Notes: generated from the sequence alone by a model not told the origin. 64,000 bases of DNA from Dehalococcoidia bacterium (GCA_965232875.1 OZ247431.1:2744376-2808375), one strand, 5' to 3'. Shown: positions 28,892 through 44,963, numbered from the stretch's first letter. A program made the numbers and translations.

Positions 28892-30021
28892 AGTGTCCTA
28901 TCCCCGAGTTGTGGCGACAGGTATGGGTCTGGTGAAGTGAGGGGCCAGGCGACGATCCTGCTGTGTGTAGGAGCACAGGAGGGACAGGCGCCATGACCCC
29001 GGAGGACGCAATCTACCGCTTTCGTCTGCGCACGTTGGCCTTGGCCAAGGAGCTGGGCAACGTGCGCGCGGCGTGTCGCGCGATGGGCATTCACCATTCG
29101 ACGTTCTACCGCTGGAAACGGCAGGCGGAGCAGTACGGTCCGGAGCTGCTGCGCCCGCGCGAGCGACGCCGACCGCAGATGGCCAACGCGACCAGTCCAT
29201 TGGTCGAGCAGCGGGTGGTCGCGTTTGCGTTGGGCCAGCCGGGCTTCGGACCGGCGCGGATCGCGGCCGAGTTGGCGCGGCCGAAGTGGGGCGGCATCCG
29301 GCTCTCGGCGAACGGCGTCTGGCGCGTGCTCAAGCGTCACGGGCTGAACACCCGGGCCAAGCGTCTGGGCCTGGTCGCCGGCTACGCCGCGGCGCCTGAA
29401 CCGGCGCCCCGCGAGCCGCAGCCGGAGCGCCACCTGGAGGTCGCTCGACCAGGTGAGCTGGTGCAGTTCGATTGCTTCCACGTGGGCCGGCTCTCGGGGA
29501 CCAAGGGCACCGTCTGGCAGTACACCGCGATCGATGTCGCCTCGGCCTACACCTGGGCGGAGCTGCACACCACGCCGCGCAATCCGGCAGCCAAGTGGAC
29601 CTCGCAGCTGGCCCGCCGTGTGGCCCGCGACTTGGCCGAGCGCGGCTGGCAGCTGGAGCCCGCGATGAGCGACAACGGCTCCGAGTTCCGCTCGCGCGAG
29701 TTTGGCCGGACGGTGCAAGCGTTCGGCGCCCGCCAGCGCTTCATCCACGCCGGCCGGCCGCAAACCAACGGTTGCGTCGAGCGCGTCCAGGGCACGATCC
29801 TTGAAGAATGCTGGAAGCCCGCCTTCGCCCGCTACCTGATCCCCAAGCAAACTGGCCTCAAACGCGAACTCGAACGCTATCTCCGCTACTACAACGAAGA
29901 CCGCGCTCACACCGGTCGCTGGACGCGCGGCCGCACCCCCGACACCGTGATCGGCAAGGCCAAGCTATGGTCCTAACGCAGAGCAGGATGAGTCGCCAGA
30001 TCTTGGGGATAGGACACTCTA
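28889..30021 (+). mobile_element. complete IS481-family insertion sequence (about 1133 bp) with 17-bp terminal inverted repeats
   Basis: IRL TAGAGTGTCCTATCCCC (28889-28905) is the exact reverse complement of IRR GGGGATAGGACACTCTA (30005-30021). A single DDE transposase ORF lies inside. Confidence 0.85.
28963..29976 (+). CDS. IS481-family transposase (rve integrase-core DDE)
   Basis: N-terminal HTH (AACRAMGIHHSTFYRWKRQ). DDE residues in FDCFHV ... SDNGSEF ... TNGCVERV. Typical IS481 length of 337 aa. Confidence 0.9.
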   Translation: MCRSTGGTGAMTPEDAIYRFRLRTLALAKELGNVRAACRAMGIHHSTFYRWKRQAEQYGPELLRPRERRRPQMANATSPLVEQRVVAFALGQPGFGPARIAAELARPKWGGIRLSANGVWRVLKRHGLNTRAKRLGLVAGYAAAPEPAPREPQPERHLEVARPGELVQFDCFHVGRLSGTKGTVWQYTAIDVASAYTWAELHTTPRNPAAKWTSQLARRVARDLAERGWQLEPAMSDNGSEFRSREFGRTVQAFGARQRFIHAGRPQTNGCVERVQGTILEECWKPAFARYLIPKQTGLKRELERYLRYYNEDRAHTGRWTRGRTPDTVIGKAKLWS

Positions 30022-30101: not shown

Positions 30102-31496
30102 CTAGCGAGATTTCGTCGCCTGAGGCTTTGTCACCGAGTTCAATGTGATAGCAAACGCCGCCTGCTCCCGACCGTGCAGCCGACGCCAAACCATTGCGAA
30201 GACGCCTCCGGCAACCAGGAGAATCAGCAACAATGAGCCGAACGACGCCTGAAAGCCGACCATATCTGCAACGGTGCCTGCGATCGGCATGATGATGGCG
30301 ATCATCAATGCGGTCGAGAGTTGGAACATCGACAGTACCGTCGCGCGCTGGTCTGATGGAATGCGGCGATTGATGTAACCCGTCGCGATCGGGCGGGTCA
30401 TGCCCCGGATCGCTGCCAGCATGCCAAATCCGACCACGACCCAGAGCGAATCCCAGAGCGCCGGCGCGAGGAACAGGACCGCTCCCGCGAACAGCAGGAC
30501 CATGAGCGAGCGCCGTTCGCCAAATCGGCTCGCCACCCAGGCTGCCAGCAGCGAGCCCACAACCATCCCGGCGACCGGCGACATCAGCATGCCCGAGTAT
30601 GTGAATCCGGTCGTCACGCCGGCAGACGGGTCAACGCCGTGCTGAACGACGAAGGGTTGCAACAGGAACTCGGTAATCGTGATGACCGCGACAATCACCG
30701 TGCCAAAGAGGATGTACCAGAAGAGCGTCTTGCGTCGCCAGACCACCATGACACCTGTCAACATGTTGGCCAGCAATCCGCTCCGGCTCGCAGCGATCTG
30801 ACCTGTACGGCCGGACTGGTCGCCAGTCCCATTCGTCCCAGCCTCGCTGACCTGCAGCGAGGAAATCTCCGCCTCACTACGCGGCGGTTCACGTAGCAAC
30901 AGGGCGATACAACCCGCGACTCCCATAGCGATCGCGCCCAGAAGGATCGTGACCGAATAGCCAACCAACGCGACCAACGGCCCGCCCAGCAACGTAGCGA
31001 TCAACATTGAGCCAAAGGCCATTGCGTCAGAGCGTCCGATGTGTTTCTCGTAGTCCCTGGTGCGGCCGGTCTGTCGCAACGTGTCATAGATCAACGCATG
31101 TCCAGCGCCGGAGTACAACGTAATAGCAATCGCAACCATGACATAAGCCGCCAACAGTACAACATAGGTCGAACTAAACGCAAAGACGACCGATCCCAGG
31201 CAGAAACACGCGCCGCCCATCACCAGCGAGGTACGACGCCCCCAGCGGTCGGCCACTGCTCCTGTCGGCACTTCAGCCAGCACGACCGTCAGCCAGAAGA
31301 GCGACTCGATGGTCGAAATCTGGGTCAGGCTCATGCCCCGGAACTCCTGCAGGTAGATGACCCAGATCGGCATCCAGATCAGAAAGCCGCTGACGCCATT
31401 GAACAGGTAGTAGACGGGAATATTCCGGGCAAAGCGTCGGCGGATCAGGTGAACATCATCGGGACCGGCGTTCACGCCGTTCGAGGCAATCGCCAT
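30102..31496 (-). CDS. MFS transporter
   Basis: 464 aa with 12-14 TM segments. MFS signature-like GAVADRWGRR between TM2 and TM3. Confidence 0.8.
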   Translation of the reverse strand: MAIASNGVNAGPDDVHLIRRRFARNIPVYYLFNGVSGFLIWMPIWVIYLQEFRGMSLTQISTIESLFWLTVVLAEVPTGAVADRWGRRTSLVMGGACFCLGSVVFAFSSTYVVLLAAYVMVAIAITLYSGAGHALIYDTLRQTGRTRDYEKHIGRSDAMAFGSMLIATLLGGPLVALVGYSVTILLGAIAMGVAGCIALLLREPPRSEAEISSLQVSEAGTNGTGDQSGRTGQIAASRSGLLANMLTGVMVVWRRKTLFWYILFGTVIVAVITITEFLLQPFVVQHGVDPSAGVTTGFTYSGMLMSPVAGMVVGSLLAAWVASRFGERRSLMVLLFAGAVLFLAPALWDSLWVVVGFGMLAAIRGMTRPIATGYINRRIPSDQRATVLSMFQLSTALMIAIIMPIAGTVADMVGFQASFGSLLLILLVAGGVFAMVWRRLHGREQAAFAITLNSVTKPQATKSR

Positions 31497-31601
31497 AGCG
31501 TTTCGAGTCTACGCGGTGCCCACATCAGTTCCTTCAGCCCAATCGAACCACATTTGACCTCCGTACTTTCCCTTCCGGAGAATTTGGCAAGAGCACCTAT
31601 T

Positions 31602-31760
31602 CCGTCATTGCCGCGCTCCGACGCGGCAATCTCGCAGCATCCAGCACCAACGTCTGTGCTCGTATCAGCGAGATACCCGCGACAAGCGCGGGTATGACGG
31701 AGCTGCTCCCGCGGACTTGACTCTCTTTGCGGGGTCTCGGCAAGGGGGAGAAGGGGAGTT
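31602..31760. repeat. R2 two-hairpin repeat (31602-31702) followed by a degenerate R1 element (about 31723-31760)
   Basis: Read directly; over 90% identical to the copies at 3672 and 11486. Confidence 0.8.
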
Positions 31761-33064: not shown

Positions 33065-33133
33065 TGGAACAGGCTAGGGCTTGAACGCCAGCTATGGCTG
33101 CTGTTCAGCGGGCGGGGAAATCTGTGGCGGGCG

Positions 33134-33515
33134 ATGGTTAGCCAACCTTTTTTTCCTAGCCGAAAAAATGAATGGCGGCGACGATCTTCAGCGTACTGCT
33201 GAGGATCGTGTGGTTGGGGTGGTTGGAAGTGGTTAGGTTTGGACGGTTTTGGACGGTTTGGGTTGGACGGTTTTGTTCGGATTTGTTCGATCCTGGGGGG
33301 ATATGCGCGGGTGGGGACGAACGTGGAGGATCGGGGGTGGGTCTGTGCGGGGGGTTGGTGCGTGGTCATCGGGGTTGCTTTCGGAAGTGGGTTGTCGGCG
33401 GGGCGCGACCGATTATATCCGGACAGATGTTCTGTCAGGGTTGGCTGTGGGTGTCGGGAGTGACACGTTGGTTGAAGGGAGAACGGTCATACGGAATAGG
33501 GAGTGTCTTGGCAAC
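33134..33515 (+). repeat. long GT-rich direct repeat A1 (about 385 bp). Partner A2 at 37506-37896
   Basis: Shared blocks: TTTTTTCC-N-GCCGAAAAAATGRATTGGCGGCGACGATCT, TGTTGGGGTGGTTGGAAGTGGTTAGGTTTGGA, GGTGGTCATCGGGGTTGCTTTCGG..GTGGGTTGTCG and GGACRGATGTTCTGTCRGGGTTGGCTGTGGGTGTCGGGARTGACA. Roughly 75-80% identity overall. Strong G+T strand bias. ORF-track ORFs inside (33172-33534 and others) look non-coding. Confidence 0.8.
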
Positions 33516-33707
33516 CGCCGCCCGGGCAAAGTGATCTCGCGGTACGTCGGCTGGACCGAAATTTACCGCCCCGCCTCTAAGAAGAAGACCCAGCTCGGCT
33601 CGACGGGCATCCTGCGCGACCGCCGAGACACTGCCAACGCTGAACGCCTCAACCGCCGCCTCCAGTTGGCCAGCGCGCACTGAGCCAAGCGGAATTGACG
33701 GCTTCTG

Positions 33708-34232
33708 TTAGTCAGGAAGGCTCTGGCCAGTTCGCTCGAGCAAGGCGTCCCTCAGAACCACCCTCAGCACGTCGCGGACGCCTTCTTTGTTGATTCCGAA
33801 TTCGAAGGCACACTCGGCCATCTGTTGATCCATATGGCCGTCAAGGTTCTCTTTGGTGTAGCGCTCCGCGACGGCGTCGAGTTGGAATGGTTTCTCGCCA
33901 CCGGCCAGCGGCACGGTTGGAGCGACACTAGCGGCCCAAGCATGGGCATTGATCCAGGCTGACAGTTCCTCGCCGAACTCCGTAAGCCGCAACGGGCTTG
34001 AACCTGCTACAGGGACTGGCGGCATACGTCGAAGAATCTCCTTAATGTCGGCCCGCACCTCAGTCATGAACTCACGAAAATTGCCACGGTCGGTGTCCAC
34101 TTTGGATTGCCATCTGATGAAGGCCGCGAACATTGTGAGGATGAAAATTGCGCCGACGATGATCGGGGCCCACATCCAATCATCCAACGTGACAGCTAGG
34201 AACATGACAGACATCCTTCCTAGTCCCTGCAC
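33708..34232 (-). CDS. hypothetical membrane-anchored protein
   Basis: 174 aa. N-terminal TM (MSVMFLAVTLDDWMWAPIIVGAIFILTMFAAFI). No family recognised. Confidence 0.4.
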   Translation of the reverse strand: MQGLGRMSVMFLAVTLDDWMWAPIIVGAIFILTMFAAFIRWQSKVDTDRGNFREFMTEVRADIKEILRRMPPVPVAGSSPLRLTEFGEELSAWINAHAWAASVAPTVPLAGGEKPFQLDAVAERYTKENLDGHMDQQMAECAFEFGINKEGVRDVLRVVLRDALLERTGQSLPD

Positions 34233-34353
34233 GGATAGCGTACGCCTCAGCGACGCACACTGGTGGCACTGTGGATTGAGTCTCTCCTCAACGCAATGCT
34301 GACCACATGTTCTCTCAACCGTTTATCAGGACTGACGGCAAGATCTTCTTCGC

Positions 34354-35562
34354 CTAGCTCACCAACTGCAGCTTCGACTTTAGGTACTCCATCCCGCGGT
34401 TGCCCTTGATGCTGTTGCAGTGGCCGCAGAGGAGCTGGAGGTTCTGGATGTGGTCGGTACCGCCTTTGGACTGGGCGATGATGTGGTCGACTGTCAGGTG
34501 CTGGGGCTGGAAGTGTGTGCCGCAGCCGGCGCAGTCGCCGCCTTGCTGACCGTAGAGCTGCTGCTTGTTGGCGGCCGAGTTGTAGGCAGGCAGCGGCCCG
34601 AGGTCGGTGCGCTGGGGGATGTCCTCGCGGTGCACGATGTTGCGCCACAGGCCCTGGTCGGCCTCGACGCGCTCGACGACCAACTCGGCCGCCTTCGCTG
34701 ACAGGTCGATGCCGACCCAATGCCTGTCGATGCGGTCGGCGGCGACCAGCGTCGTCGCACAGCCGCAGAACGGGTCCAGCACCATGTCGCCCTCGTTCGA
34801 TGAGGCCCTGATGATGCGGTCAAGTAGAGCAAGTGGTTTCTGTGTTGGGTAGCCGACGCGCTCTTTGGCAGAGGGCATGATCGGCTGCATGACCCACCAA
34901 TCCTCAGGGTGCTTGCCCCTCTGGTTCGGCCTATAACCGCTGTACACCTTGTTGGTTCGGTACGATTTGTCATATCGGCTCGGTAGTGAGTCTGTGACTG
35001 AGTCCGAATAGGGAATCCTCACGTCGTCAACGTTGAACGTCGGATCGCTGAGGGAGTATCGCAAGATGACATCGTGCTTCCGTGCGAAGTCGCGTCGCGG
35101 CACTCCGCCGCCTCGGTAAGCCCAGATGATCTCATTGCGGAATCTGCGCCGCCCAAAGATCGCGTCCATGAGTAGCTTGAGGTAGTGGCTCATCGTTGGG
35201 TCGCAGTGCAGGTAGATGGAACCTGTGGGCTTGAGCAGGCGGGGCATCTCCAACAGGCGGGCCGCCATGTAGGCCAGGTAGGACTTGTCTGAGTCGGTCA
35301 TCGCGGCCAGCAATACTCGATGCACGGTGGGGTGCTTCTGCTCGATCAGGTTGATCCACTCGGCGTCGACGTCGGAGAGCGACCAAGTGTCCTTGAACGC
35401 GGCGCCGGCGGCGGCCGAGCCGATCGGCGCGGCGTAGTTGGCGTTCGAGTTGAACGGCGGATCGAGGTAGATCAGGTCGACGGTCTCGGAGTTCATGCCT
35501 CGCATGATTTCGAGGCAATCGCCCGTCCAGACCGTGTCGGAGGCGAAGTTTGGTGTTGCCAT
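34354..35562 (-). CDS. DNA methyltransferase (N6_N4_Mtase, beta-class, DPPF motif IV then FxGxG motif I) fused to C-terminal HNH endonuclease; copy 1
   Basis: LIYLDPPFNSNANY (motif IV), VLDPFCGCATT (motif I), C-terminal CAGCGTHF...DHIIAQSKGG...NLQLLCGHCN (zinc-finger HNH). Central residues about 150-240 differ completely from paralog 2. Confidence 0.85.
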   Translation of the reverse strand: MATPNFASDTVWTGDCLEIMRGMNSETVDLIYLDPPFNSNANYAAPIGSAAAGAAFKDTWSLSDVDAEWINLIEQKHPTVHRVLLAAMTDSDKSYLAYMAARLLEMPRLLKPTGSIYLHCDPTMSHYLKLLMDAIFGRRRFRNEIIWAYRGGGVPRRDFARKHDVILRYSLSDPTFNVDDVRIPYSDSVTDSLPSRYDKSYRTNKVYSGYRPNQRGKHPEDWWVMQPIMPSAKERVGYPTQKPLALLDRIIRASSNEGDMVLDPFCGCATTLVAADRIDRHWVGIDLSAKAAELVVERVEADQGLWRNIVHREDIPQRTDLGPLPAYNSAANKQQLYGQQGGDCAGCGTHFQPQHLTVDHIIAQSKGGTDHIQNLQLLCGHCNSIKGNRGMEYLKSKLQLVS

Positions 35563-36045
35563 AGGGGTTAGGCTATCGGGCGATGCTCTGGCGGGGCCGG
35601 AGAGGGAATCGGATTCTTTCCGCTGCTATTGCCAATTATCGAGCGCAGCACCCACAAGCGCCGCTGCGTCGCCGTCCGTCCCTCCACGCTGGTGTGCCAC
35701 ACCGGGGTTTGGACACGACGTTGGTTGGATCGGATACGCTGTCGGTGGAACCTGGGCAGGACTAGGGGGACGATAATGCTAATTATCGAGCACCTGCCCT
35801 TCCAGGACTCCAAGGGCGGGCGAGCGGACGTAGGTTGCGGTTGCGCCGTCCACTCGCCCTAGCGCGGGATCGTCTGTTACCGATTCCCGCGCTGCGCCCT
35901 ACCTTACCGACGCTCGCTGGCCCCACGCCACTTTCTTGACATGCCCACAGGCCGTTGACCCACTGAGCTGTCGTCGGCATACTTCCGGCTGCTCTGGGGA
36001 TGGCTGGTTGTTTGCTTGGTTCCAGTCGGTAGTCGTGGACTCGGC

Positions 36046-36102
36046 GAGATACCCCCGTTCAAGTCGGGGGCAGGCTCCGCGGCAAGCGCGGGTATGACGG
36101 AG
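36046..36102. repeat. partial R2 element (second hairpin) with an inserted CCCCCG-ttcaagt-CGGGGG hairpin, in the leader of MTase-HNH copy 1
   Basis: Read directly. The same GTAGTCGTNGNCTCGNCGAGATACCC context precedes copy 2 at 40500-40559. Confidence 0.7.
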
Positions 36103-36236
36103 GGAGAGGCAACATCCAGTAACTGCCGCGGTGCAGCCGCAGTTCTGCCGCAGTTCAGCCGTGGGGCACTCGCTACCAACTCTCTACGTTGAGGCGGGAA
36201 TAGACTCGAACGCAGAGACCTGTTGGTTCGCCGGGA

Positions 36237-37454
36237 GTGTTCGACTTGCCGCCTGCGTTCGTCTTCAACTGGCTGCACGAGGCCGTCATTGGGATTGAGG
36301 TCTGGCAGTTCGTCGGGCTGGGCGTGATGGCGGTGATCATCGTCGTCGCGCGGTTTGCGATTGTCTGGTCGCTCAACCTGGCCATCATGCGACGCACGGT
36401 TCCCGAGCGTCATGAGTTCTGGCGATTTGAGCTCAGTCGGCTGCAACGTCCGCTCTTGCTGATGCTGGGCGCTGTGACGCTGGCGATCGGTTTTCCCGTG
36501 CTTGACTTCGATTCCGATGTCGAGGATGTGGTCGCGATCTTCGCCAACTTCGCCTCGACCTTCGCCGGCGTACTGGTCGGCTTCCGCCTGGTCGACGCGG
36601 CCGCCGACTACTGGCGCGAGATTGCGCTGGAGACCGACTCCAAGCTCGACGATCAGTTGGTCCCGCTGGCGCGAACTACGGGCAAGATTTTCGTCGGGGC
36701 CATCGGCGCGATCTTCGTGCTGCAGAACCTCGACATCAACATTACGTCGCTGATCGCGGGGCTCGGCATCGGCGGCGTGGCCGTTGCGCTGGCGTCGCAG
36801 GACACGCTGAAGAACTTGCTGGGCGGCGCGACCATCCTGGCCGACAAGCCGTTCCAAGTTGGCGATTGGGTGATCGTCGGCGACATTGAGGGCACGGTCG
36901 AGCAGGTCGGATTCCGCTCGACCAGAGTGCGCACGTTTGCCGACTCGTTGATTACCGTGCCCAATGCGCGGATGACCGACACCGCTGTCAACAACATGGG
37001 ACAGCGCACCTGGCGGCGGTACTACACGACGGTCGGGCTTGCGTATCACACCGACCCGGACCGGATCCAGGCGTTCGTCGAGGGCGTGCGGGCGATTGTG
37101 CGCTCGAACTCGAACATGCGGCATGACTACTACATCGTCGAGTTGCATAGTTTCGGCGACTCGGGCTTGAACATCATGATCTACACGTTCATCGCGGCGT
37201 CGACGTGGAACGAGGAGCTGCGCACCAGGCACGTGTTCAACATCGACATCATCCGCCTGGCGCAGGAGCTGCAGGTCGAGTTCGCCTTCCCCACGCAGAC
37301 GCTGCACATCGCTAGTCAGCACCAGGGTCCCGAGCAGATTCCCCCGCCCAGAGATCGGGACGACCTGAGCAACACCATCGAAGACTTCGCCCCCGAGGGA
37401 TCGGCCGGCCAACGCCAAGACAACCCCATCACCGGCGGCTACGACAACGGCTAG
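36237..37454 (+). CDS. mscS: small-conductance mechanosensitive channel (MscS family)
   Basis: Three N-terminal TM helices followed by the conserved MscS core (LLGGATILADKPFQVGDWVIVGDIEGTVEQVGFRSTRVRTFADSLITVPN). Confidence 0.85.
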   Translation: MFDLPPAFVFNWLHEAVIGIEVWQFVGLGVMAVIIVVARFAIVWSLNLAIMRRTVPERHEFWRFELSRLQRPLLLMLGAVTLAIGFPVLDFDSDVEDVVAIFANFASTFAGVLVGFRLVDAAADYWREIALETDSKLDDQLVPLARTTGKIFVGAIGAIFVLQNLDINITSLIAGLGIGGVAVALASQDTLKNLLGGATILADKPFQVGDWVIVGDIEGTVEQVGFRSTRVRTFADSLITVPNARMTDTAVNNMGQRTWRRYYTTVGLAYHTDPDRIQAFVEGVRAIVRSNSNMRHDYYIVELHSFGDSGLNIMIYTFIAASTWNEELRTRHVFNIDIIRLAQELQVEFAFPTQTLHIASQHQGPEQIPPPRDRDDLSNTIEDFAPEGSAGQRQDNPITGGYDNG

Positions 37455-37505
37455 CGCGGAGCGCCGGAGTCGCCGTTGGCGGGAGCGGTCGCGTGAATTT
37501 CGGGC

Positions 37506-37896
37506 CGATGGGTGGTTGGTCAACTTTTTTTCCGGCCGAAAAAATGGATTGGCGGCGACGATCTCACGCGTATTGCTGGAGATCGTGCGTGTTGGGGTGG
37601 TTGGAAGTGGTTAGGTTTGGAAGATTTTGGAAGGTCTTGGTGTTCAGATTTGTCCAGGTTTGTCCAGGAACGTCTGGATTCGTCCAGCTTTCGGCGGTGT
37701 GATTCTGTGCGGCTCCAGGTTGATCCAGAGGATGTCGGGACGGGGTTGGTGGTCATGTCGGTCGCTTTCGGGTGTGGGTTGTCGATTGGGCGCGACTGAT
37801 TGTATGCGGACGGATGTTCTGTCGGGGTTGGCTGTGGGTGTCGGGAATGACAGTCGGTTCAGCGGAGTACTGTCAGAGGGAACAGGGAGTGTGTGA
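37506..37896 (+). repeat. long GT-rich direct repeat A2, partner of A1
   Basis: See A1. It ends at the start codon of the phosphotransferase gene. Confidence 0.8.
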
Positions 37897-38891
37897 TGTC
37901 CGACGCGACGGTGCCTTCCATCCAGGTCGATGGCTGGAACGATTGGATTCGGATCTACAACGACGCCTCGGTCTGGCGGCCGCTGATTGACGCGATCTGT
38001 GCGAGGGAGGGGATCGGCTATCGGCAACTGCGCGCTGCCAGTGCCAACACCAACGCCGTCTTCCTCCTGGACCGGGCCTACGCGCTCAAGATCCACAGCC
38101 CGTTCTGGGACGAGTTCGAGTTTGAGCGGACGCTGCTCGAAGCGCTCAACGATCATGAGGAGATCCCCGTATCCGATGTCTTGGGCTACGGATACATCGC
38201 GGACGGTGGAGGAGGCTCCTGGCCTTACCTGATAACTCGCTACTGCGAGGCGCGGCCTTTCTCGGAGATTCGCGGCGAACTCTCCGACGAGGACGCCAGG
38301 TCGCTGGCAGCGCAACTCGGCGGAATCGTGCGAGCGCTTCACGACCTGGATGCAGGGCAGTTGACCAGCGACACGACTGAGCGGGTCTGGACCGATGTCG
38401 TATCAGAGCGGCGGCGGAAGGCGCTCGCAGAACTGACCGAGGCCGGGGTCCTGGAAGACGGCCTCGTTGAGCCGCTTGAGTCCCTGTTGGACAAGGCGAT
38501 TGCGGCTGACGTCCCAGGGTCACGGATCGTCGTGCATGGAGACCTCGGCGCGGATCACGTGCTCTGCGCGCGGGTCGAGGGCGGTTGGACGATTGACATG
38601 CTGATCGATTTTGGGGATGCCAAGATCGGGGTGTTGGAGTATGAGTGGATGCCGGTCTGGATGGGGTTTTGCGGGCGCGATCCTGCTCTCGCTCGCGCTG
38701 TGCTCGAGGGATGTGGGCCGGGCTTGCTTGTTGACGGTGACTTCCCGACACGGGCGGTCGCCTGGACTCTGTTGCATGACTTCGGCGCCGATGAGCTGAT
38801 CAGCCAATGGCGAGAACGGGGTCAGCCGACGCCCATCGAGACGATGGAGGAGCTTGGAGCATTCCTCTGTCCAGCGTCGATCTTGCGATGA
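37893..38891 (+). CDS. aminoglycoside/choline-kinase-like phosphotransferase (APH family)
   Basis: Catalytic loop VVHGDLGADHVL (HGD motif) and IDFGDA (DFG). 332 aa. The start is either GTG 37893 or ATG 37896. Confidence 0.75.
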   Translation: MMSDATVPSIQVDGWNDWIRIYNDASVWRPLIDAICAREGIGYRQLRAASANTNAVFLLDRAYALKIHSPFWDEFEFERTLLEALNDHEEIPVSDVLGYGYIADGGGGSWPYLITRYCEARPFSEIRGELSDEDARSLAAQLGGIVRALHDLDAGQLTSDTTERVWTDVVSERRRKALAELTEAGVLEDGLVEPLESLLDKAIAADVPGSRIVVHGDLGADHVLCARVEGGWTIDMLIDFGDAKIGVLEYEWMPVWMGFCGRDPALARAVLEGCGPGLLVDGDFPTRAVAWTLLHDFGADELISQWRERGQPTPIETMEELGAFLCPASILR

Positions 38892-39103: not shown

Positions 39104-40492
39104 TTAGGCCGTTGCCAGTTGCAGTTTCGACTTCAGGTACTCCATCCCGCGATCACCCTTGATGCTGTTGCAATGACCGCAGAGGAGCTGGAGGTTCTCG
39201 ATGTGGTCGGTGCCGCCCTTTGATTGGGCGATGATGTGGTCGACTGTCAGGTGCTGGGGCTGGAAGTGCGTGCCGCAGCCGGCGCAGTCGCCGCCCTGCT
39301 GACCGTATAGCTGCTGCTTGTTGGCGGCCGAGTTGTAGGTAGGCAGCGGCCCCAAGTCGGTGCGCTGGGGGATGTCCTTGCGGTGCACGATGTTGCGCCA
39401 CAAGCCCTGGTCGGCCTCGACACGCTGGACGATTAGCTCGGCTGCCTTGGCCGACAGGTCGATGCCGACCCAGTCGCGCTGCAGGCGGTCGGCGGCGACC
39501 AGCGTCGTCGCGCAGCCGCAGAACGGGTCAAGCACCATATCACCCTCGTTCGATGATGCCTTGATGATCCGTTCAAGCAGTGCGAGCGGCTTCTGTGTCG
39601 GATAGCCCATCCGCTCCTTGGCCTGTGCGCTTACCGGGTTGATATCGGTAATCACGTCGCCAGCCGCTCGTCCTTGTTGTTCATCAAGGTAGCGCTTCAG
39701 TCTTGGCCGTCGGTCCGTAGATGCCGGATACCAGATGCGCCCTTCGTCGTGGAGGCGCTGCATCGTTTCCCGCTCATAGCGCCAGCCCTTCTCCGGGGGC
39801 GGGAAGCCGCGCCAGGTGTAGGTCATGTTTGGTCTTGGGTTGGGGCTGGTCATATTGTCCAGCATGTAACGCCTGCCAGACTCATCGCTGTGGCGATAGA
39901 ACCGATTCACGTACTCCTCGTCGTGAGGTTCCCACGCTCCGTTCCAGGTCGCCTCCGAACCGCGAACGTAGTACAGCAGCGTGTCGTGGATTCGGCCATA
40001 TCGTCTGGCGTCAGATCGACTGCTCGTCCGTTTCCAAGAGATCTCATTCTTGAAGTTCCGACGTCCGAACACAGCGTCCATGAGCAACTTGAGGTAGTGG
40101 CTCATCGTTGGGTCGCAATGCAGGTAGATCGAGCCGGTCGGCTTGAGCAGGCGGGGCATCTCCAACAGCCGCGCCGCCATGTAGGCCAAGTAGCTTTTGT
40201 CCGAGTCTGTTAACGCTGCCAACAGCACGCGATGCACGGCAGGGTGCTTCTGCTCGATCAGGTTGATCCACTCGGCGTCGACGTCGGAGAGCGACCAGGT
40301 GTCCTTGAACGCGGCGCCGGCGGCGGCCGAGCCGATCGGCGCGGCGTAGTTGGCGTTCGAGTTGAACGGCGGGTCGAGATAGATCAGGTCGACGGTCTCG
40401 GAGTTCATGCCTCGCATGATTTCGAGGCAGTCGCCCGTCCAGATCGTGCCGGTGGCGAAGTTCTGCGAACTGCTGTGGGGGTTGCTGGTCAC
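39104..40492 (-). CDS. DNA methyltransferase (N6_N4_Mtase) fused to C-terminal HNH endonuclease; copy 2 with a different, longer central segment
   Basis: The N-terminal about 150 aa and C-terminal about 160 aa are over 90% identical to copy 1 at protein and DNA level. The central segment of about 140 aa is unrelated. The start was set at GTG about 40492 (MTSNPHSSSQNFATGTIW...); the ORF-track ORF extends to 40729 through a non-coding R2 repeat. Confidence 0.8.
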   Translation of the reverse strand: MTSNPHSSSQNFATGTIWTGDCLEIMRGMNSETVDLIYLDPPFNSNANYAAPIGSAAAGAAFKDTWSLSDVDAEWINLIEQKHPAVHRVLLAALTDSDKSYLAYMAARLLEMPRLLKPTGSIYLHCDPTMSHYLKLLMDAVFGRRNFKNEISWKRTSSRSDARRYGRIHDTLLYYVRGSEATWNGAWEPHDEEYVNRFYRHSDESGRRYMLDNMTSPNPRPNMTYTWRGFPPPEKGWRYERETMQRLHDEGRIWYPASTDRRPRLKRYLDEQQGRAAGDVITDINPVSAQAKERMGYPTQKPLALLERIIKASSNEGDMVLDPFCGCATTLVAADRLQRDWVGIDLSAKAAELIVQRVEADQGLWRNIVHRKDIPQRTDLGPLPTYNSAANKQQLYGQQGGDCAGCGTHFQPQHLTVDHIIAQSKGGTDHIENLQLLCGHCNSIKGDRGMEYLKSKLQLATA

Positions 40493-40526
40493 TTGTCCGG
40501 TTCCTGTTAGTAGTCGTCGTCTCGTC

Positions 40527-40559
40527 GAGATACCCGCGGCAAGCGCGGGTATGACGGAG
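40527..40559. repeat. partial R2 element (second hairpin) just upstream of MTase-HNH copy 2
   Basis: GAGATACCCGCGGCAAGCGCGGGTATGACGGAG read directly. Confidence 0.7.
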
Positions 40560-40613: not shown

Positions 40614-41363
40614 CTAGCCAGCAGCATCCGGAGCGGCGTCAGCCACGGACTGATGCGGTGGATCGGCGATGCGGGGCGGGGCGACCATCTTCTGCGCGTC
40701 CAGCAGCTTCTTGATGACCTCGAAGTCATCTTCGGTCAACGGCTTGACCGAAGTAAGGGTGAACGAATTCCCGTCGTACAGCGCACCCGAGATTGGTGGG
40801 GCAATAGTCGTGTCCCTACCAATACTGTTTGGCTCCTGTTGGGGTGCCACCGTCTCTGCTTTCTCTTCGGGGCTCGGAGCGGAGCTTCTGTGAGCCATTC
40901 TTGACGCCATGAAGCGCTCCGTCTCAAGATATACACGAGCGCACTTGGGCGCAGAGCTCGCGGTGAAATTCTGGCGCACCAGCCAAGCCTCCAGGCTCTT
41001 AGGTTGGGGCGTCTTGGAACCAGCGAATTGCTTGCGAATCCTCTGGAACAACGGAGGCGAGTCCGCAGCGCGCACCAAAGCTTCCCATTGTTCCTCTCCC
41101 TCCGCGAGGAGTATGTCCTTGGCAAGGTCGCTCACCCGATACGATCCTTGGCTGGGTGTATCGATCAGTGCATACTGCCTCAAGGTGGAGATCCACGCTA
41201 GAGCTGCCCCACCTCGGGGCGAGTCGTAGCCTGCCGCAGCCGCCAGCGCTGGCGCGTCGATCTCGATAGAACTGTGAGACTGGAACACTTCGTTGATCTT
41301 CGCGATCGAAGCCTCGAGGCTATGACTCGGGTGCTTTGGGCTGCGCGGTCTCTTGCTTGGCAT
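40614..41363 (-). CDS. hypothetical protein immediately upstream of (same strand as) MTase-HNH copy 2
   Basis: 249 aa, Pro/Ala-rich low-complexity stretches, no recognised domain. May or may not be real. Confidence 0.35.
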   Translation of the reverse strand: MPSKRPRSPKHPSHSLEASIAKINEVFQSHSSIEIDAPALAAAAGYDSPRGGAALAWISTLRQYALIDTPSQGSYRVSDLAKDILLAEGEEQWEALVRAADSPPLFQRIRKQFAGSKTPQPKSLEAWLVRQNFTASSAPKCARVYLETERFMASRMAHRSSAPSPEEKAETVAPQQEPNSIGRDTTIAPPISGALYDGNSFTLTSVKPLTEDDFEVIKKLLDAQKMVAPPRIADPPHQSVADAAPDAAG

Positions 41364-41717
41364 GTTGCTCTCCTTGTGCTTATGCCGTCCTGGATATTGT
41401 GCCTACAAGTTAGCCACAAGTTCAGGATCTTGTCAAGAGCACACGGGCGCAAATCAGAAAATCAGTCAGAAAGCAGGCTAGGTCGGCACAATCCACTACT
41501 CGTCACTATCCGCCGCGATGGGGGTCGGTCGTGGATCTCCAACGTTGCATTGGTGGGCCCTCGAAGACCGTGTTGCGAACTTTTTCTTGGGACGCGACTC
41601 TCTGACGGCCCTCGCCTGAGGACCGTTGCCTCACCGGCCGGGTAGGTACTCCCTGAAGCGAGCGTACACACGTAGTCGCCGATTGCGATGTGCGTCGGAG
41701 TGGCGTACATTGCCTGC

Positions 41718-41996
41718 ATGAAAACTGAGACCAAGGTGGAACGTTGGACAATCCGAGTCTCGCCGTCCGACGACATGATTGTCCGCAGAGTCGTGGCGGA
41801 GAGCGGAATGTCGCTCAGTGAGTACGTGGTTCGTCACACGGTGTCAGCCGCGACCGCAGACCTTGCGGACCGGCGCGTCTTCGCGCTGTCGGCAGAGTCC
41901 TGGTCAGAGCTTCAAAACCTCCTCGATCAGCCGGTGTCGCCCAAACCCCGGCTCCGCACGCTGCTTGCACAGCCCTCCATCTTGGAGTCCGAGTGA
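41718..41996 (+). CDS. tacA: DUF1778 (TacA-family, RHH) type II antitoxin
   Basis: ERWTIRVSPSDDMIVRRVVAESGMSLSEYVV...ADRRVFALSAESWSELQNLLDQPVSPKPRLRTLL matches the DUF1778 family pattern (RxxxFxLxxxxWxxFxxxLdxP....LrxLL). 4-bp overlap with the downstream GNAT stub. Confidence 0.7.
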   Translation: MKTETKVERWTIRVSPSDDMIVRRVVAESGMSLSEYVVRHTVSAATADLADRRVFALSAESWSELQNLLDQPVSPKPRLRTLLAQPSILESE

Positions 41997-42262
41997 GCGG
42001 CTACCGCGGGCCTGTACTCCTCACGCCAAACCATCTGCTGGATCGTTTCGACTGCGACGACGACGCGCCGGTGCTTACGATCTCGGGCGGTAGCGCGATT
42101 ACGGCCAGAAAGGCGGTTCGCTCCCGTTGTGCGGGTCGGCGCTCCGATGGTGGGGCGACGGTTCCTCAGTACAGATCGCCCGAAAGAAGCCGACTTTCCC
42201 TCCGCGTCGCTGCTACCTTGGGTGTCCTTGAACGCGATATCGGGTCCTTGGGTCTTGCTTGA
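41993..42262 (+). pseudogene. truncated GNAT-family (TacT-like) toxin gene; only about 30 N-terminal residues remain recognisable
   Basis: VLLTPNHLLDRFDCDDDAPVL resembles a TacT N-terminus (...H..s.FDCG...L). The remainder has no GNAT acetyl-CoA motif, and the ORF collides with the convergent CD-NTase gene. Confidence 0.4.
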
Positions 42263-43856
42263 ATCGCTTGATCTCTCCGAGATGGCAACGTTTGTACTTT
42301 CGTCCGCTGCCGCAAGCGCAGGGATCATTCCTCCTCAAACACTGCATGGCGATATCGGCAAGGGAAGACAGATACTGCTGGAAACCGAGCTCGCCATGGC
42401 CGTACTCGTCCCAGAGGTGCTGCCTGGCAGCCTGAATGCCGTATCGGTCGGTGTACCCCAATCGGTAGAAGAATGGGGTCACCATTTCATCCATAAACTC
42501 CCTGAGCGTCGTGCGACGGTCCGCCAACAGCTGAAGGCCCAGACAGCAAGAGCCGTCCCGATAGACGTGGAGATCGAAGCTGTCAATGCGTTCCCTTACA
42601 GCGATTCGCTCATGATCTCCGCCAACCTCGTAGACCTTCGGCCAACCATTCTGGTCAAAGGAGTCCAGGTCGATCCGGATCGAGAATGAGTCGCAGAGGA
42701 ACGTTTCCATTCTCTCGGTTGCATCGTCGCAGCCAATCAACAGCTTCCCTGCTTCCCCGTCGTACGCGGCACGCAACTCCAACTCACCTTCGATGAGCGC
42801 GGCCTCCGAGTCGCAACTGAGGCCGGGGAATTCCGAAGTCAACCACTCGAGCTCAACAGGGCTCAAGCTGAGCCGCCCTCGGGATGGAATGGCGCCCACA
42901 GCGGCATACGGCCTGCTCGGCGTGACTGTTCTCGGTGCCGTCTTCGCCACGGAGCGGTTTGCTGAGACAGCCACGCTGCCGAAGCCGTCCCCGAAGAGCG
43001 CCCGCCACTTTCTGACGCTCGACTGCTCGTCTTGGTCCTCGTATGCCTCCCTTACTCTCGTGGCATAGCTGGAGATCATGTCCCTGAAGCGGTCGTACTT
43101 GTCCTGATCCCAGTGCCGCGTGAAGGTCTCGCTTGGCAGAACGGGATTACGGATATCGGGCATGAATGGATGAGACTGGAGATATCTGTCGAGCCGTGTG
43201 ATCACGGTCAGCAGCGCATCGGGAATGGTCTTGAACTCTGTGTCGTCTTCCCAGTCGTAGACCGTGCTGCCAATCAGCATGGTGAGCAGGATCGACGGTG
43301 CCGTGAAGGTCTTCTTGTGGTCTCTCAGGTACTTCAGCAATCGCGTGACCAGCTTGAGATTGCCGTTGGTGATCCGGTTCTTCTGGTTGAACCAGTCGCG
43401 GTATCCGTTACCGTCCGTTGGCTCGAACCCGTTGGTCTTGCGGTTGCAGATGAAGTGGCTGCCGTTGAGGGTGATGCAGGGAACTAAGTCGATATTGAAA
43501 TCGTCCGCATAGTTGACGGTGATGCACCTAGTCTTCCTCTGAGCTTTGTCGGTATAGTTGCCGTTGTCCTTGAGACACTCGTACACGTCGTCGATGTAGT
43601 CCTTCGCTGACTTGGTTTCATCGAACTCCAAGTAAACGAGGCGGTCCACATCGAACTCGTCGCTGTCTTTGACCGGTCTGATCGTTGTGCGGAGGGCGTA
43701 TGAGCCTTGCCTCTCGGTCGTCTCGAACCCGACCAGATGCTGGGCCAGGTAATCGCTGACGGCCTTGTCGCTCCTCTTCAACCGCTCGTACCGAGTAGGG
43801 TTGAGATTCACGTGTCCGCTCATGAATTGACGGAAGTCGTCGACTCGCCTTGTCAT
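42213..43856 (-). CDS. CBASS cyclic oligonucleotide synthase (SMODS/CD-NTase-type nucleotidyltransferase) with about 250-aa unrecognised Cys-rich C-terminal extension ending in a SEC-C-like motif
   Basis: NTase signature GSYALRTTIRPVKDSDEFDVDRLV (GS...SDxDxxV) plus the downstream acidic residue in NYADDFNIDLVPC. 547 aa against a typical 300-400. C-terminal CACGSGRKYKRCH. 4-bp overlap with the patatin gene upstream. Confidence 0.7.
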   Translation of the reverse strand: MTRRVDDFRQFMSGHVNLNPTRYERLKRSDKAVSDYLAQHLVGFETTERQGSYALRTTIRPVKDSDEFDVDRLVYLEFDETKSAKDYIDDVYECLKDNGNYTDKAQRKTRCITVNYADDFNIDLVPCITLNGSHFICNRKTNGFEPTDGNGYRDWFNQKNRITNGNLKLVTRLLKYLRDHKKTFTAPSILLTMLIGSTVYDWEDDTEFKTIPDALLTVITRLDRYLQSHPFMPDIRNPVLPSETFTRHWDQDKYDRFRDMISSYATRVREAYEDQDEQSSVRKWRALFGDGFGSVAVSANRSVAKTAPRTVTPSRPYAAVGAIPSRGRLSLSPVELEWLTSEFPGLSCDSEAALIEGELELRAAYDGEAGKLLIGCDDATERMETFLCDSFSIRIDLDSFDQNGWPKVYEVGGDHERIAVRERIDSFDLHVYRDGSCCLGLQLLADRRTTLREFMDEMVTPFFYRLGYTDRYGIQAARQHLWDEYGHGELGFQQYLSSLADIAMQCLRRNDPCACGSGRKYKRCHLGEIKRFKQDPRTRYRVQGHPR

Positions 43857-44821
43857 TCGTTGTCCTCCAAACTGGTCAATATGGTCTCGCCGTACAGGCT
43901 GAAATCTCGGTTGGCTAGCGCTTTGAGGGTCTGCAGGTGCGTCGTGTCATCCAGCCTCCAGGACTGAATCTCTGGGTCGAGCCGTATGTGGCGATCGCCG
44001 AGCAGCAGCTTTGCCATGTTGGTTGACGCCTGAGACTGCAGGCCCAGCACGTAGCCGACCAGTTTTTCGCCGCCCCAGCCGGTCAGCAAGCCCCAGGATC
44101 TGCCCTCAGTGAAGAAACTGGCAGTGCGCCCGGTTCCGAGAGAAAGCACGCGTATCTGCCCGAGCGGTCGGCCGAATCTGGACAGCGCCTCCGTGACCGC
44201 AATGATCGTGGGGTTATTGGCCCAGAGTCCGCCATCTGCGAGGAGGTATTCGCCGACCTGCCTGGGGTCGAAGTATGCTGGCGCGGCGCAGGACGCCAAG
44301 ATTGCGTCTCTCAGTCGAACATCACCGTCCCGCAGGTAGGGACCGCCCAAGTCCTTCAGGTACCGAGACTTGAAGACATGCGCATTGCCGGTCGAAATGT
44401 CTGAGCTGGTGATCATCAGAGGGGTTGTGATTTCCCCCATGGTGACTGACGGCAGGTATTCGCCGATTGCATTGTGAAGGGGTTCAGTCGAATAGCGGCT
44501 GCGCAGAAAGGGAAAGCAGCTGAATCTCTTCGTCTTGAAAATGCGGTCGGCCTGACTCTCGAAGAGCTCGACGACAGTCCGCATCGGGATCTCTGTCGCT
44601 GCTGCGCCCGCCAATATCGATCCGGTGCTGGTTCCCGCGATAAGGTCGAAGCACTCACTCACGGGCGCCATGAGCGCGTCTTCCAGTTTCGCGAGTACGT
44701 GCGCGGCATACACCCCTCTGATGCCGCCCCCGTCTAACGCAAGAATGCTGAACGAGTCGTTGCGTCGCATCACGAGCCACTCGTTCTCCGATTCGCTGCC
44801 GGTAGCCGGCCGAGCATCCAC
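43853..44821 (-). CDS. capV: patatin-like phospholipase (CBASS effector CapV-like)
   Basis: LALDGGGIRG (oxyanion), GTSTGS (GxSxG nucleophile), DGG (catalytic Asp). Alternative starts GTG 44821 or ATG 44770. Confidence 0.85.
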   Translation of the reverse strand: MDARPATGSESENEWLVMRRNDSFSILALDGGGIRGVYAAHVLAKLEDALMAPVSECFDLIAGTSTGSILAGAAATEIPMRTVVELFESQADRIFKTKRFSCFPFLRSRYSTEPLHNAIGEYLPSVTMGEITTPLMITSSDISTGNAHVFKSRYLKDLGGPYLRDGDVRLRDAILASCAAPAYFDPRQVGEYLLADGGLWANNPTIIAVTEALSRFGRPLGQIRVLSLGTGRTASFFTEGRSWGLLTGWGGEKLVGYVLGLQSQASTNMAKLLLGDRHIRLDPEIQSWRLDDTTHLQTLKALANRDFSLYGETILTSLEDNE

Positions 44822-44908
44822 GAAGGATTTTCCTCTCGTCTACTCTGGGCAGATCGCGGCAAGAATCCGGTGATTCCGACATAATCCAGAAGATGGGCGG
44901 GCTCGATC

Positions 44909-44947
44909 GGTTTACACATGTTGAGAGTGTACCATGATTTGTAAACC
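44909..44947. promoter_or_regulatory. 8-bp inverted repeat GGTTTACA-N23-TGTAAACC in the capV / regulator divergent promoter, just upstream of the regulator RBS
   Basis: Read directly. A GGAGGAA RBS and the ATG at 44964 follow. Confidence 0.45.
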
Positions 44948-44963
44948 GAATGGAGGAACTCCA

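Follow-up and report, generated by a model that had tools for sequence, protein, structure and literature searches.

Diverged copies of a non-coding region beside methyltransferase-HNH genes in a Dehalococcoidia genome: a possible portable upstream region

Homologous non-coding sequence before unrelated genes has been described under the name of putative mobile promoters (PMPs; Matus-Garcia, Nijveen and van Passel 2012; PMC3575422). PMPs are defined by similarity alone, their function being putative, and the operational cut-off is an identity of 80% or more across 50 nt or more between -150 and -50 relative to the translation start (PMC3575422). A 64,000-nt stretch of a Dehalococcoidia bacterium genome (the window) contains two direct repeats, A1 and A2, that resemble PMPs in placing homologous non-coding sequence before unrelated coding sequences, within and across genomes, with no Rfam match. 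Measured relative to positions 33508 and 37896, respectively, A1 and A2 are 85.4% identical over 96 nt, which exceeds that cut-off, and the coding sequences that follow are not paralogous (the Zn-ribbon ORF family after A1 has no similarity to the APH gene after A2; E > 2). The A1/A2 family differs from PMPs in its greater length (about 400 nt), its recognisable internal architecture and its tie to islands with genes encoding a DNA-methyltransferase fused to an HNH domain (MTase-HNH). Correia, ERIC and REPIN/MITE elements are likewise small, discrete intergenic non-coding units able to bring regulatory signals to neighbours, whereas the A1/A2 family has few copies in the sequence compared, always faces a downstream start, and lacks terminal inverted repeats (TIRs) and target duplications. 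Regulatory regions of R-M and TA systems (C-box, methylation-sensitive R-M promoters, omega/ParR-type) offer a further parallel, as the element lies beside MTase/nuclease and Doc genes and has a conserved palindrome and, ahead of a putative weak promoter, an array of short direct repeats; it has, however, no C protein or C-box, and its palindrome shows hairpin-type covariation. The HEARO/IscB omega RNA is similar as a non-coding region of a few hundred nt that recurrently adjoins an HNH-domain gene, but here the wobble-supported strand is opposite that of the HNH gene, the two are separated by other genes, the HNH domain is fused to an MTase with RuvC absent, one genome has the gene without the element, and Rfam again gives no match.

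The two repeats are real and lie where a sequence-only reading had placed them. A blastn alignment pairs 33134-33515 (A1) with 37513-37892 in direct orientation (E 1e-56); of its 390 columns 73.6% are identical, slightly below the 75-80% first estimated, and the homologous blocks are as that reading described. Homology begins ~36-40 nt further 5' than first drawn (at about 33098 and 37468) and stops at the Shine-Dalgarno (SD) sequence. The best matches of the repeats to the rest of the window are 14-22-nt chance matches, and the copy-number search, run within the 64 kb, gave two copies only. A1 and A2 share identical blocks of 31 nt and 22 nt, and the 3' 109 nt of A1 is 84% identical to A2. 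The strong G+T skew noted earlier was borne out: in a window of unskewed composition (62.6% GC), the top two G+T excursions are A1 and A2, with maxima per 150 nt of 0.81 and 0.74, respectively (window mean 0.505, sd 0.052). Base fractions for A1/A2 are G 0.41/0.39, T 0.28/0.30, C 0.15/0.16 and A 0.16/0.15. A2 indeed ends at the APH start, with GGGAG at 37885-37889 followed by ATG 37896, and A1 ends shortly before a small ORF, its SD lying ~28 nt ahead of the GTG of 33531-33683.

No coding signal was found in any frame of A1 or A2. The dN/dS values of the three frames are 1.56, 0.94 and 0.91, the first belonging to the sole long open frame, and differences between the copies by position mod 3 number 20/15/12. 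ORFs called over the element in two other genomes (L017 and L020) have no Pfam match. Neither purifying selection nor codon periodicity is seen in the repeats, which speaks against coding sequence of a duplicated gene, a possibility raised beforehand.

The segment between the repeats had been taken for an MTase-HNH/mscS cassette. It is not one, because mscS is native and syntenic in L012, the closest relative compared, where the gene plus 90 nt upstream is 92% identical. Nor is 33516-37505 absent from L012 as a unit, since mscS is kept there and the missing block ends at 36110. A1 edges a separate replacement: at this position L012 has ABC-transporter genes (SBP_bac_5 and two permease genes), the last 13 nt of a permease gene persist in the window at 36111-36123, and synteny breaks (33084/85) 13 nt from the element start. 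Island 1 (~3 kb, with A1 at its left edge) therefore appears to have replaced the three ABC-transporter genes. By the same comparison A2 itself would have been inserted: it is absent from L012, where 24 nt separate the mscS stop from the APH start, and the break in synteny (37456/37899) falls within about 10 nt of the bounds of element-family homology (37468/37892). With L012 as the sole relative used, without an outgroup, to distinguish insertion from loss, we infer an insertion of A2. The start of the APH ortholog aligns with GTG 37908, and the first 4 APH codons may have been supplied by the element.

Two further copies occur in other genomes. A3 (L017) is 76% identical to A1 over 306 columns, and A4 (L020), a full-length copy, is 71% identical over 532 columns; both adjoin MTase-HNH genes at a tRNA-Ala/rimM-tmk locus in the same convergent layout as in the window, 0.6-1.3 kb from the gene. 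After A4 the same strand carries a 76-aa Zn-ribbon-like ORF, itself with no family match, and next a Doc toxin gene. The sequence after A1 (33500-33683), earlier suspected to be the remnant of a lost gene, is a decayed homologue of this Zn-ribbon-like ORF: 33531-33683 has 54% amino acid identity to it (E 9e-19), without the CxxC/C/H residues and without the original start. More distant relatives of the 5' module precede, at a distance of ~120 nt, a type IIG R-M gene (L001/L002) and a different gene (L003). Every copy is co-oriented with a gene start at its own 3' end, and this end always carries an SD. The closest homologue found for MTase-HNH1 (95% identical) is in another genome at a different locus, adjoining A3, and MTase-HNH2 is closest to a homologue in a third genome; A1 and A2 are not a local duplication, each belonging to a different MTase-HNH island lineage. 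The linkage of element and gene is not obligatory, because the MTase-HNH of L019 (84% identical) has no element nearby and the L001-L003 copies have no MTase-HNH within the flanking sequence compared.

Table 1. Features of the two element copies and adjoining genes (window coordinates).
Feature	Coordinates	Strand	Basis
A1, copy 1 of non-coding element; left edge of ~3-kb island	33098..33507	+	blastn, synteny
A1 T7-N8-A6 inverted repeat	33148..33168	+	sequence
A1 hairpin P2, GACGATCTTCAGC-GTACT-GCTGAGGATCGTG, 12 bp, -20.1 kcal/mol, z -5.0	33180..33210	+	folding
A1 tandem repeats, period 9-10: GTGGTTGGA, TTTGGACGGT, CGGATTTGTT	33210..33289	+	repeat analysis
A1 G-rich block (31 nt), GTTGGGGTGGTTGGAAGTGGTTAGGTTTGGA, identical in A2	33213..33243	+	alignment
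A1 weak promoter-like pair TTGTCG-N16-TATATC, 8/12, within conserved block	33392..33419	+	by eye, below scan threshold
A1 small conserved hairpin GGACAGATGTTCTGTC, directly 3' of -10-like hexamer	33421..33436	+	alignment
A1 SD-like AGGGAG, end of A1/A2 homology	33498..33503	+	sequence
Decayed small ORF	33531..33683	+	homology to L020 ORF
Island 1, absent from L012	33085..36110	.	synteny
174-aa ORF, no family match, downstream of MTase-HNH1 on same strand, part of island 1	33708..34232	-	
MTase-HNH1 (N6_N4_Mtase + HNH), convergent with A1	34354..35562	-	domain search
mscS, native core gene, 92% DNA identity and syntenic in L012	36237..37454	+	synteny
A2, copy 2; discrete indel between mscS stop and APH start	37468..37898	+	synteny with L012
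A2 T7-N7-A6 inverted repeat	37525..37544	+	sequence
A2 hairpin P2, -16.7 kcal/mol, z -2.7	37557..37587	+	folding
A2 G-rich block, same sequence as in A1	37591..37621	+	alignment
A2 tandem repeats, period 10: AGGTTTGGA, TGTCCAGGTT	37613..37668	+	repeat analysis
A2 weak promoter-like pair TTGTCG-N16-TGTATG	37779..37806	+	by eye, below scan threshold
A2 small conserved hairpin GGACGGATGTTCTGTC	37808..37823	+	alignment
A2 SD GGGAG and ATG 37896	37885..37898	+	sequence
APH-family phosphotransferase, native, 88% DNA identity to L012	37896..38891	+	synteny
MTase-HNH2, convergent with A2/APH, absent from L012	39104..40492	-	domain search, synteny

The internal features of the element are listed in Table 1. 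Conservation peaks at the A-run and P2, and again at the -10-like hexamer and the hairpin after it. The T-run/A-run inverted repeat noticed at the start of each repeat is present in both; the A-run is retained in every copy and the T-run is degenerate in A3. Among the blocks of the family, P2, which contains GATC, is the best conserved. The inner 27 nt of the G-rich block is identical in L001-L003 also, and A3 and A4 have other sequence there. The middle of the element is a fast-changing array of 9-10-bp repeats, and the lack of conservation of the units among copies argues against a sequence-specific repeat-binding protein. The G-quadruplex potential once suggested for these blocks was not confirmed: no canonical motif (four G3+ runs, loops of 1-7 nt) occurs in any of the 6 copies, and the number of two-tetrad G2-type motifs differs by no more than about 2 sd from that in composition-matched shuffles (i.e., no enrichment), leaving base composition as the one point in favour.

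A1 and A2 are, at about even confidence, best explained as diverged copies of a ~400-430-nt non-coding upstream/leader region of small accessory islands. In sponge-type Chloroflexota this region would accompany small islands of methylase-nuclease genes, and its copies now stand before unrelated genes, a fairly ordinary instance of a reused regulatory region and not the ends of a cassette. From the order of the conserved parts we infer promoter, insulator and leader functions, the element being most likely a self-contained expression front end for any downstream gene. Its 5' boundary module (a small palindrome with the T-run, the A-run, and the strong 12-bp GATC-containing hairpin) may insulate it from neighbouring transcription; after this would come 9-10-bp tandem repeats forming a spacer that evolves fast, then a weak sigma-70-like promoter, and a short leader that opens with the small hairpin and ends in the SD. 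An island would then combine the upstream region with a small cargo that varies and is co-directional with it, and with a convergent DNA-methyltransferase/HNH-nuclease gene. In L020 the element would head an operon of the Zn-ribbon ORF and the Doc toxin, and in the window A1 would head the decayed remnant of that ORF. A2 would have landed between mscS and APH, uncoupling their ancestral 24-nt junction and giving APH a new upstream region, an RBS and possibly a new start codon. A duplicated promoter or leader was among three options offered by the sequence-only reading, and it fares best of the three, the copies being non-coding, co-oriented, SD-ended and similar to the degree seen in PMPs; the part of it that fails is local duplication.

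A sigma-70 consensus scan found no passing promoter in A1, A2, A3, A4 or L001, which speaks against the front-end function; the proposed hexamers score 8/12 at best, and the -10-like TGTATG of A2 and A4 is without the key A at position 2 and T at position 6. Terminator-like calls at the T-run arise in A2 and A4 only, under permissive settings and not above shuffle expectation, that in A2 comprising 37503-37521 plus the T-run, ahead of T7-N7-A6. P2 itself is strong, and its nearest T-run (minus strand) is ~12 nt away. The upstream neighbour is divergent at 3/4 loci, where an upstream terminator is not obviously needed.

P2 could be read differently, as an operator or epigenetic switch of 27-31 bp with a GATC in each arm, bound or methylated by an island protein (the Zn-ribbon ORF product or the MTase domain) that would tune the expression of toxic cargo, as at R-M promoters under the control of a C protein or of methylation. 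In 6/6 distinct sequences the outer half-sites CGATCT/AGATCG are unchanged and at fixed spacing while the inner part varies, the exact palindrome is confined to element copies among all loci compared, a small Zn-ribbon-like ORF lies directly 3' of the full-length copy, and DNA-methyltransferase genes adjoin all copies. Yet 88.9% of the cells for P2 are paired, two stem positions co-vary so that pairing is kept, and U-G wobbles occur on the plus strand, as would be expected of a nucleic-acid hairpin and not of a duplex protein site. Moreover, A2, L001 and L003 are without the Zn-ribbon ORF, that ORF matches no family, and the window shows no avoidance of GATC (O/E 0.92). The switch is unlikely, though the least so of the alternatives.

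The compensatory changes and plus-strand-specific G-U pairs of P2, together with its great stability, would fit a structured RNA leader or stand-alone ncRNA whose plus-strand transcription begins near the T/A-run and in which P2 and the downstream hairpins are functional. The small hairpin after the -10-like hexamer (where substitutions in other copies are G-U compatible) and a third hairpin near the SD also keep pairing, through one-sided or shifted changes. If P2 acts as plus-strand RNA, transcription must start upstream of it, at odds with a promoter downstream of P2. Against such an RNA, neither the window nor the loci gave a gathering-score match to Rfam 15 (including HEARO and riboswitches), and with E allowed up to 10 no match overlapped the element, so the proposed Rfam/Infernal scan identified no known family. 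Whole-element MFE z-scores are -2.6 (A1) and +0.5 (A2), RNAalifold returned isolated hairpins only with a covariation term near zero, and the C- and A-poor composition leaves few pairing partners. With two local hairpins conserved, the middle third a hypervariable tandem array whose unit differs among copies, and Rfam empty, the structured RNA family considered at the outset is weakly favoured at most, and a functional RNA is quite unlikely.

A mobile element, small and non-autonomous, or a generic repeat of intergenic regions, in either case devoid of regulatory function and only incidentally in front of genes, would account for a discrete unit with sharp bounds at two synteny breaks, for its presence in at least four genomes and at four loci that are unrelated, and for the L003 contig, which ends exactly at the element's T-run, as at assembly-breaking repeats. 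No inverted repeat joins the element ends, however, and the junctions show no target duplication against the empty L012 site; a MITE, Correia or REPIN-type assignment finds no support in these features, and no mechanism for mobility is apparent. Copies are few: the 64 kb has two, and the related loci compared have none except beside MTase-HNH genes. Orientation to the downstream start is the same in 5/5 independent cases, with the SD always at the 3' end. An element without a regulatory role is rather improbable.

Very improbable is an obligate functional partnership of the element with the MTase-HNH gene, in place of a passive upstream region, the two forming a new kind of selfish cargo-swapping module with a cargo slot; the GATC hairpin could then be a recognition or homing site or a methylation-sensed switch, or the element could give rise to an RNA acting together with the enzyme. 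That A1 and A2 are att-like or recombination ends of a 4.4-kb cassette (33516-37505) is scarcely credible, and att sites of an integrated element were rejected: direct repeats do flank MTase-HNH, and the identical 31-nt and 22-nt blocks could allow rare homologous recombination, but identity is only 74% over 390 nt, no integrase or recombinase was found between the copies, the element occurs singly at other loci, and synteny of the native mscS already refutes the cassette.

As for the MTase-HNH proteins themselves, the HNH domain gives weak matches to IscB/Cas9 HNH models. MTase-HNH2 probably starts at 40492 (462 aa), and the 3' 300 nt of its gene is 93% identical to MTase-HNH1, while the central part differs.

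The two G+T-rich repeats picked out by the sequence-only reading, A1 and A2, are real: a blastn alignment of A1 (33134-33515) with 37513-37892 spans 390 columns, of which 73.6% are identical (E 1e-56). Both were found where that reading had placed them, but the homology starts about 36-40 nt further upstream. They share a T7/A6 inverted repeat, a 31-nt G-rich block without a single difference, and a 3' block of 109 nt at 84% identity, and both stop at a Shine-Dalgarno-like AGGGAG. Their composition (G ~0.40, T ~0.29, C ~0.15 and A ~0.15) is extreme here, the window as a whole being unskewed at 62.6% GC, and they form its two largest G+T excursions in 150-nt windows, peaking at 0.81 (A1) and 0.74 (A2) against a mean of 0.505 (sd 0.052). 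No further copy occurs in the 64-kb window, where A1 and A2 otherwise match only chance stretches of 14-22 nt (blastn).

The repeats had been thought to bracket an inserted cassette, a proposal that fails on comparison with L012, the mscS locus of the closest retrievable relative. MscS is a core gene product with many orthologues, the nearest retrievable (L012) being 96% identical, and the MFS, acyl-CoA dehydrogenase, mscS and APH genes are syntenic between L012 and the window at 88-92% DNA identity. A2 is itself the insert: the mscS stop and APH start are 24 nt apart in L012 versus 444 nt in the window, the extra being A2. The interval between acyl-CoA dehydrogenase and mscS holds an SBP_bac_5 gene and two permease genes in L012, and in the window (33085-36110) A1, a small ORF (sORF), a 174-aa ORF, the methyltransferase/HNH gene MTase-HNH1 and a 550-nt spacer. 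The permease gene's final 13 nt (caacatccagtaa) survive at 36111-36123, followed by 3.4 tandem copies of an 11-nt repeat, GCCGCAGTTCA, that is single-copy in L012; together, remnant and tandem repeat mark where the replacement ends on the right. For A1 as for A2, synteny breaks within ~10-13 nt of the boundaries of inter-copy homology; such agreement speaks for the arrival of a discrete unit and against two deletions in L012 that were precise by coincidence. That the polarity is one of insertion rather than loss we infer from one relative and no outgroup; MscS relatives of 85-87% identity, considered as an outgroup for the A2 indel, were ruled out by their different synteny.

Of the MTase-HNH1 homologues that could be retrieved, the nearest, at 95% identity, belongs to a different genome, where it has tRNA-Ala/rimM on one side and tmk on the other (L017/L018); 0.6 kb past its stop in L017 is a convergent element copy, A3, 76% identical to A1 over 306 columns. 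The same locus of a related genome (L020) carries a different MTase-HNH gene and a full-length copy, A4, 71% identical to A1 over 532 columns. A1 and A2 have this same layout, with 838 nt from the MTase-HNH1 stop to A1, and 1207 nt, including APH, from the MTase-HNH2 stop to A2. As MTase-HNH1 is like the L017 gene and MTase-HNH2 like the L020 gene, the window's pair of islands represents different lineages and not a local duplication. The MTase-HNH paralogues are mosaics, 87-93% identical in their 5' and 3' parts (93% over the last 300 nt of MTase-HNH1 and MTase-HNH2) with the central part swapped, which looks like exchange of the target-recognition region. For MTase-HNH2 the probable start is 40492, giving 462 aa, rather than the ORF's first ATG at 40729. 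Weak matches of the HNH domain to IscB/Cas9 models are generic. The A3/A4 island begins directly 3' of tRNA-Ala(CGC), and the 3' end of a tRNA gene is a classic island insertion site; no tRNA gene lies in the window. A REP-like hairpin repeat (core CCGCGGCAAGCGCGGGTATGACGGAG), separate from the element and recurring intergenically in the clade, lies at the right end of island 1 (33085-36110). It precedes the start of MTase-HNH2 and that of the L020 MTase-HNH by 35-70 nt, and the start of MTase-HNH1 by ~480 nt. Linkage of element and MTase-HNH is not absolute: at L019 an 84% identical MTase-HNH has no element within the sequence available, and at L001-L003 a 5' module of the element is present with no MTase-HNH nearby.

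This 5' module comprises the T-run/A-run, a CGATCTCC...GGAGATCG hairpin and the 27-nt GGGGTGGTTGGAAGTGGTTAGGTTTGG, and is followed after ~120 nt by a type IIG restriction-modification gene in L001/L002 and by an unannotated gene in L003. Among species-representative genomes, a 20-mer of the G-block was found at three loci, all in Chloroflexota/Dehalococcoidia MAGs; an 18-mer scan of metagenomes gave 8 matches, every one an unrelated chance match, and a viral scan gave none. The 245-kb L003 contig (JAPPNI010000029.1) ends exactly at the element T-run (position 1), which hints that the MAG holds more copies or a repeat that breaks the assembly. In all five independent cases (A1, A2, A3/A4, L001/L002 and L003), the gene that begins at the element's 3' end has the G+T-rich strand as its sense strand. 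Downstream of A4 on the same strand are an adjoining 76-aa ORF with a CPDC...C...H pattern, an ORF of ~53 aa that is uncalled in the annotation, and a Doc-family toxin gene (TIGR01550, HPFVDGNKR) tail-to-tail with MTase-HNH. The sORF after A1, suspected earlier of being a gene remnant, is indeed one: it is homologous to the 76-aa ORF (54% identity, E 9e-19), its cysteines, histidine and original start having been lost; its reading as an N-terminal APH fragment, from a by-eye likeness of HVGWTEVY to HVDGWDDWTRIY, gets no support from BLASTP. Through a deletion, A3 has lost the element's 3' quarter and kept no more than the last 17 codons of the sORF homologue.

Features of the window and of related loci (positions are those of the named locus)
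Feature	Locus	Position	Strand	Remark
A1	window	33098-33507	+	
A-run and P2	window	33165-33204		70-75% of columns invariant
GGTCATCG	window	33350-33369		invariant-column cluster
GATTaTAT-CGGACnGATGTTCTG	window	33410-33449		invariant-column cluster
A2	window	37468-37898	+	
sORF	window	33531-33683		
MTase-HNH1	window	34354-35562	-	mosaic
Permease remnant and tandem repeat	window	36111-36161		
mscS	window	36237-37454	+	
APH	window	37896-38891	+	
MTase-HNH2	window	39104-40492	-	mosaic
MTase-HNH	L017	10001-11230		mosaic
MTase-HNH	L020	10001-11428		mosaic
tRNA-Ala(CGC)	L017	9786-9861		
tRNA-Ala(CGC)	L020	9785-9860		
REP-like repeat	window	31601-31701, 36044-36101, 40526-40558		
REP-like repeat	L012	4534-4634, 12599-12656		
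REP-like repeat	L017	920-977		
REP-like repeat	L020	9925-9958		
158-aa ORF over element	L017	11837-12313	-	
202-aa ORF over element	L020	12647-13255	+	
CGATC-N13-19-GATCG, other examples	window	10226-10270, 30386-30412, 56886-56912		
rve-family transposase gene	window	28963-29976		
TacA-like antitoxin	window	41688-41996		
CBASS cyclase	window	42213-43856		fused to E2-like domain
Patatin effector	window	43853-44821		
HTH and Peptidase_M78 gene	window	44934-46016		
2470-aa ORF	window	52343-59755	+	

In a four-way alignment of A1-A4, invariant columns cluster at three places (Table). The first includes P2, a 12-bp GATC-containing hairpin (-20.1 and -16.7 kcal/mol, z -5.0 and -2.7, in A1 and A2 respectively). 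Its pairing is kept in 88.9% of cells across six distinct sequences, with C-G changed to U-A on both sides at two positions and one U-G pair in two sequences, which becomes an A-C mismatch if the opposite strand is read. RNAalifold returns only P2 and a small hairpin directly after the -10-like hexamer, with a negligible covariation term, and whole-element folds are unremarkable. The middle third consists of tandem repeats of period 9-10 whose unit varies by copy (GGACGG in A1, GTCCAGG in A2, TTCAGG and TCGAT in A3/A4). The G-block is not invariant family-wide, A3 and A4 carrying other sequence there, and its invariance in the remaining copies is partly an ascertainment effect, a 20-mer having been used for the search. 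Across the window, CGATC-N13-19-GATCG occurs at 13 sites, including A1 and A2, versus 3.0 (sd 1.9) in dinucleotide-preserving shuffles.

On positional and comparative grounds, the element is best read as a portable upstream region, in which a boundary module would be followed by a variable spacer, a weak promoter, a short leader that opens with a hairpin, and finally a Shine-Dalgarno sequence. Putative promoter hexamers, TTGTCG-N16-TATATC or TGTATG, were read by eye. Against this reading, no element copy passes a sigma-70 consensus scan, and terminator-like calls in the element are marginal. The same anatomy may instead be that of an operator, or of a switch set by methylation, with the GATC palindrome at its centre, or else of an RNA leader that acts in cis and whose transcription begins upstream of P2. 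The portable upstream region has a counterpart in putative mobile promoters, for which a published operational definition considers positions -150..-50 (PMC3575422); there A1 and A2 are 85.4% identical over 96 nt, with unrelated downstream genes, and so come under that definition. Unlike Correia/REPIN-type elements, the A1/A2 element shows no terminal inverted repeats and no target duplication, and its copy number is low in the DNA covered, at two in the 64-kb window; what characterises att sites is missing as well, and neither HNH-associated RNAs nor the rest of Rfam offer a counterpart. The finding is real and belongs to a loosely defined kind that is already known, that of upstream regions reused on mobile islands.

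A structured RNA family and G-quadruplex potential had also been suggested; the first has at best weak support and the second none apart from base composition. Rfam gave no gathering-score match in the window and four related loci, and even at E up to 10 no match touches the repeats; no element copy has a canonical G3+ quadruplex motif, and two-tetrad motifs are not commoner than in composition-matched shuffles. Coding constraint is absent on either strand and in any frame, since the sole long frame open in both A1 and A3 has a dN/dS of 1.56, with differences of 20/15/12 over the three codon positions. A conserved micro-ORF (frame ...ISSVLxEI...GVVGSG and stop in A2, L001 and L003, with seemingly synonymous P2-loop changes) was ruled out, as A1 has stops and a frameshift, A3 and A4 are without the G-block, and no frame has a coding signal. 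The annotated 158-aa and 202-aa ORFs, on opposite strands over the element, have no Pfam or other family match and, lying in DNA without coding signal, are probably spurious; six-frame translations of the element, used as a protein query for spurious ORF calls elsewhere, gave no match at E up to 10. A helical phasing of T-tracts, or curved DNA, was rejected, with TT periodicity not significant and peaks inconsistent (8-12 nt), as was a phage origin, actinophage methylases being matched by the MTase domain only and the repeats matching nothing.

If the portable upstream region is the right reading, it would be a clean natural case of regulatory rewiring, in which a 430-nt unit in a 24-nt junction parts APH from mscS and supplies a new leader and ribosome-binding site. 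It would also define a type of small island, made up of the upstream element, a variable cargo and a mosaic MTase-HNH, whose occurrences lie at various chromosomal sites of uncultured sponge-type Chloroflexota, and could aid annotation of defence and toxin islands and avert spurious ORF calls over the element. The finding opens no long-standing question, and the function is one that we infer; its interest is modest unless the element turns out to be a functional partner of the MTase-HNH gene. Elsewhere in the window, the transposase gene lies ~3 kb upstream of A1, a 2470-aa ORF occupies the plus strand further downstream (Table), and 41688-46016 holds a run of defence and toxin-antitoxin genes that L012 does not have at this place.
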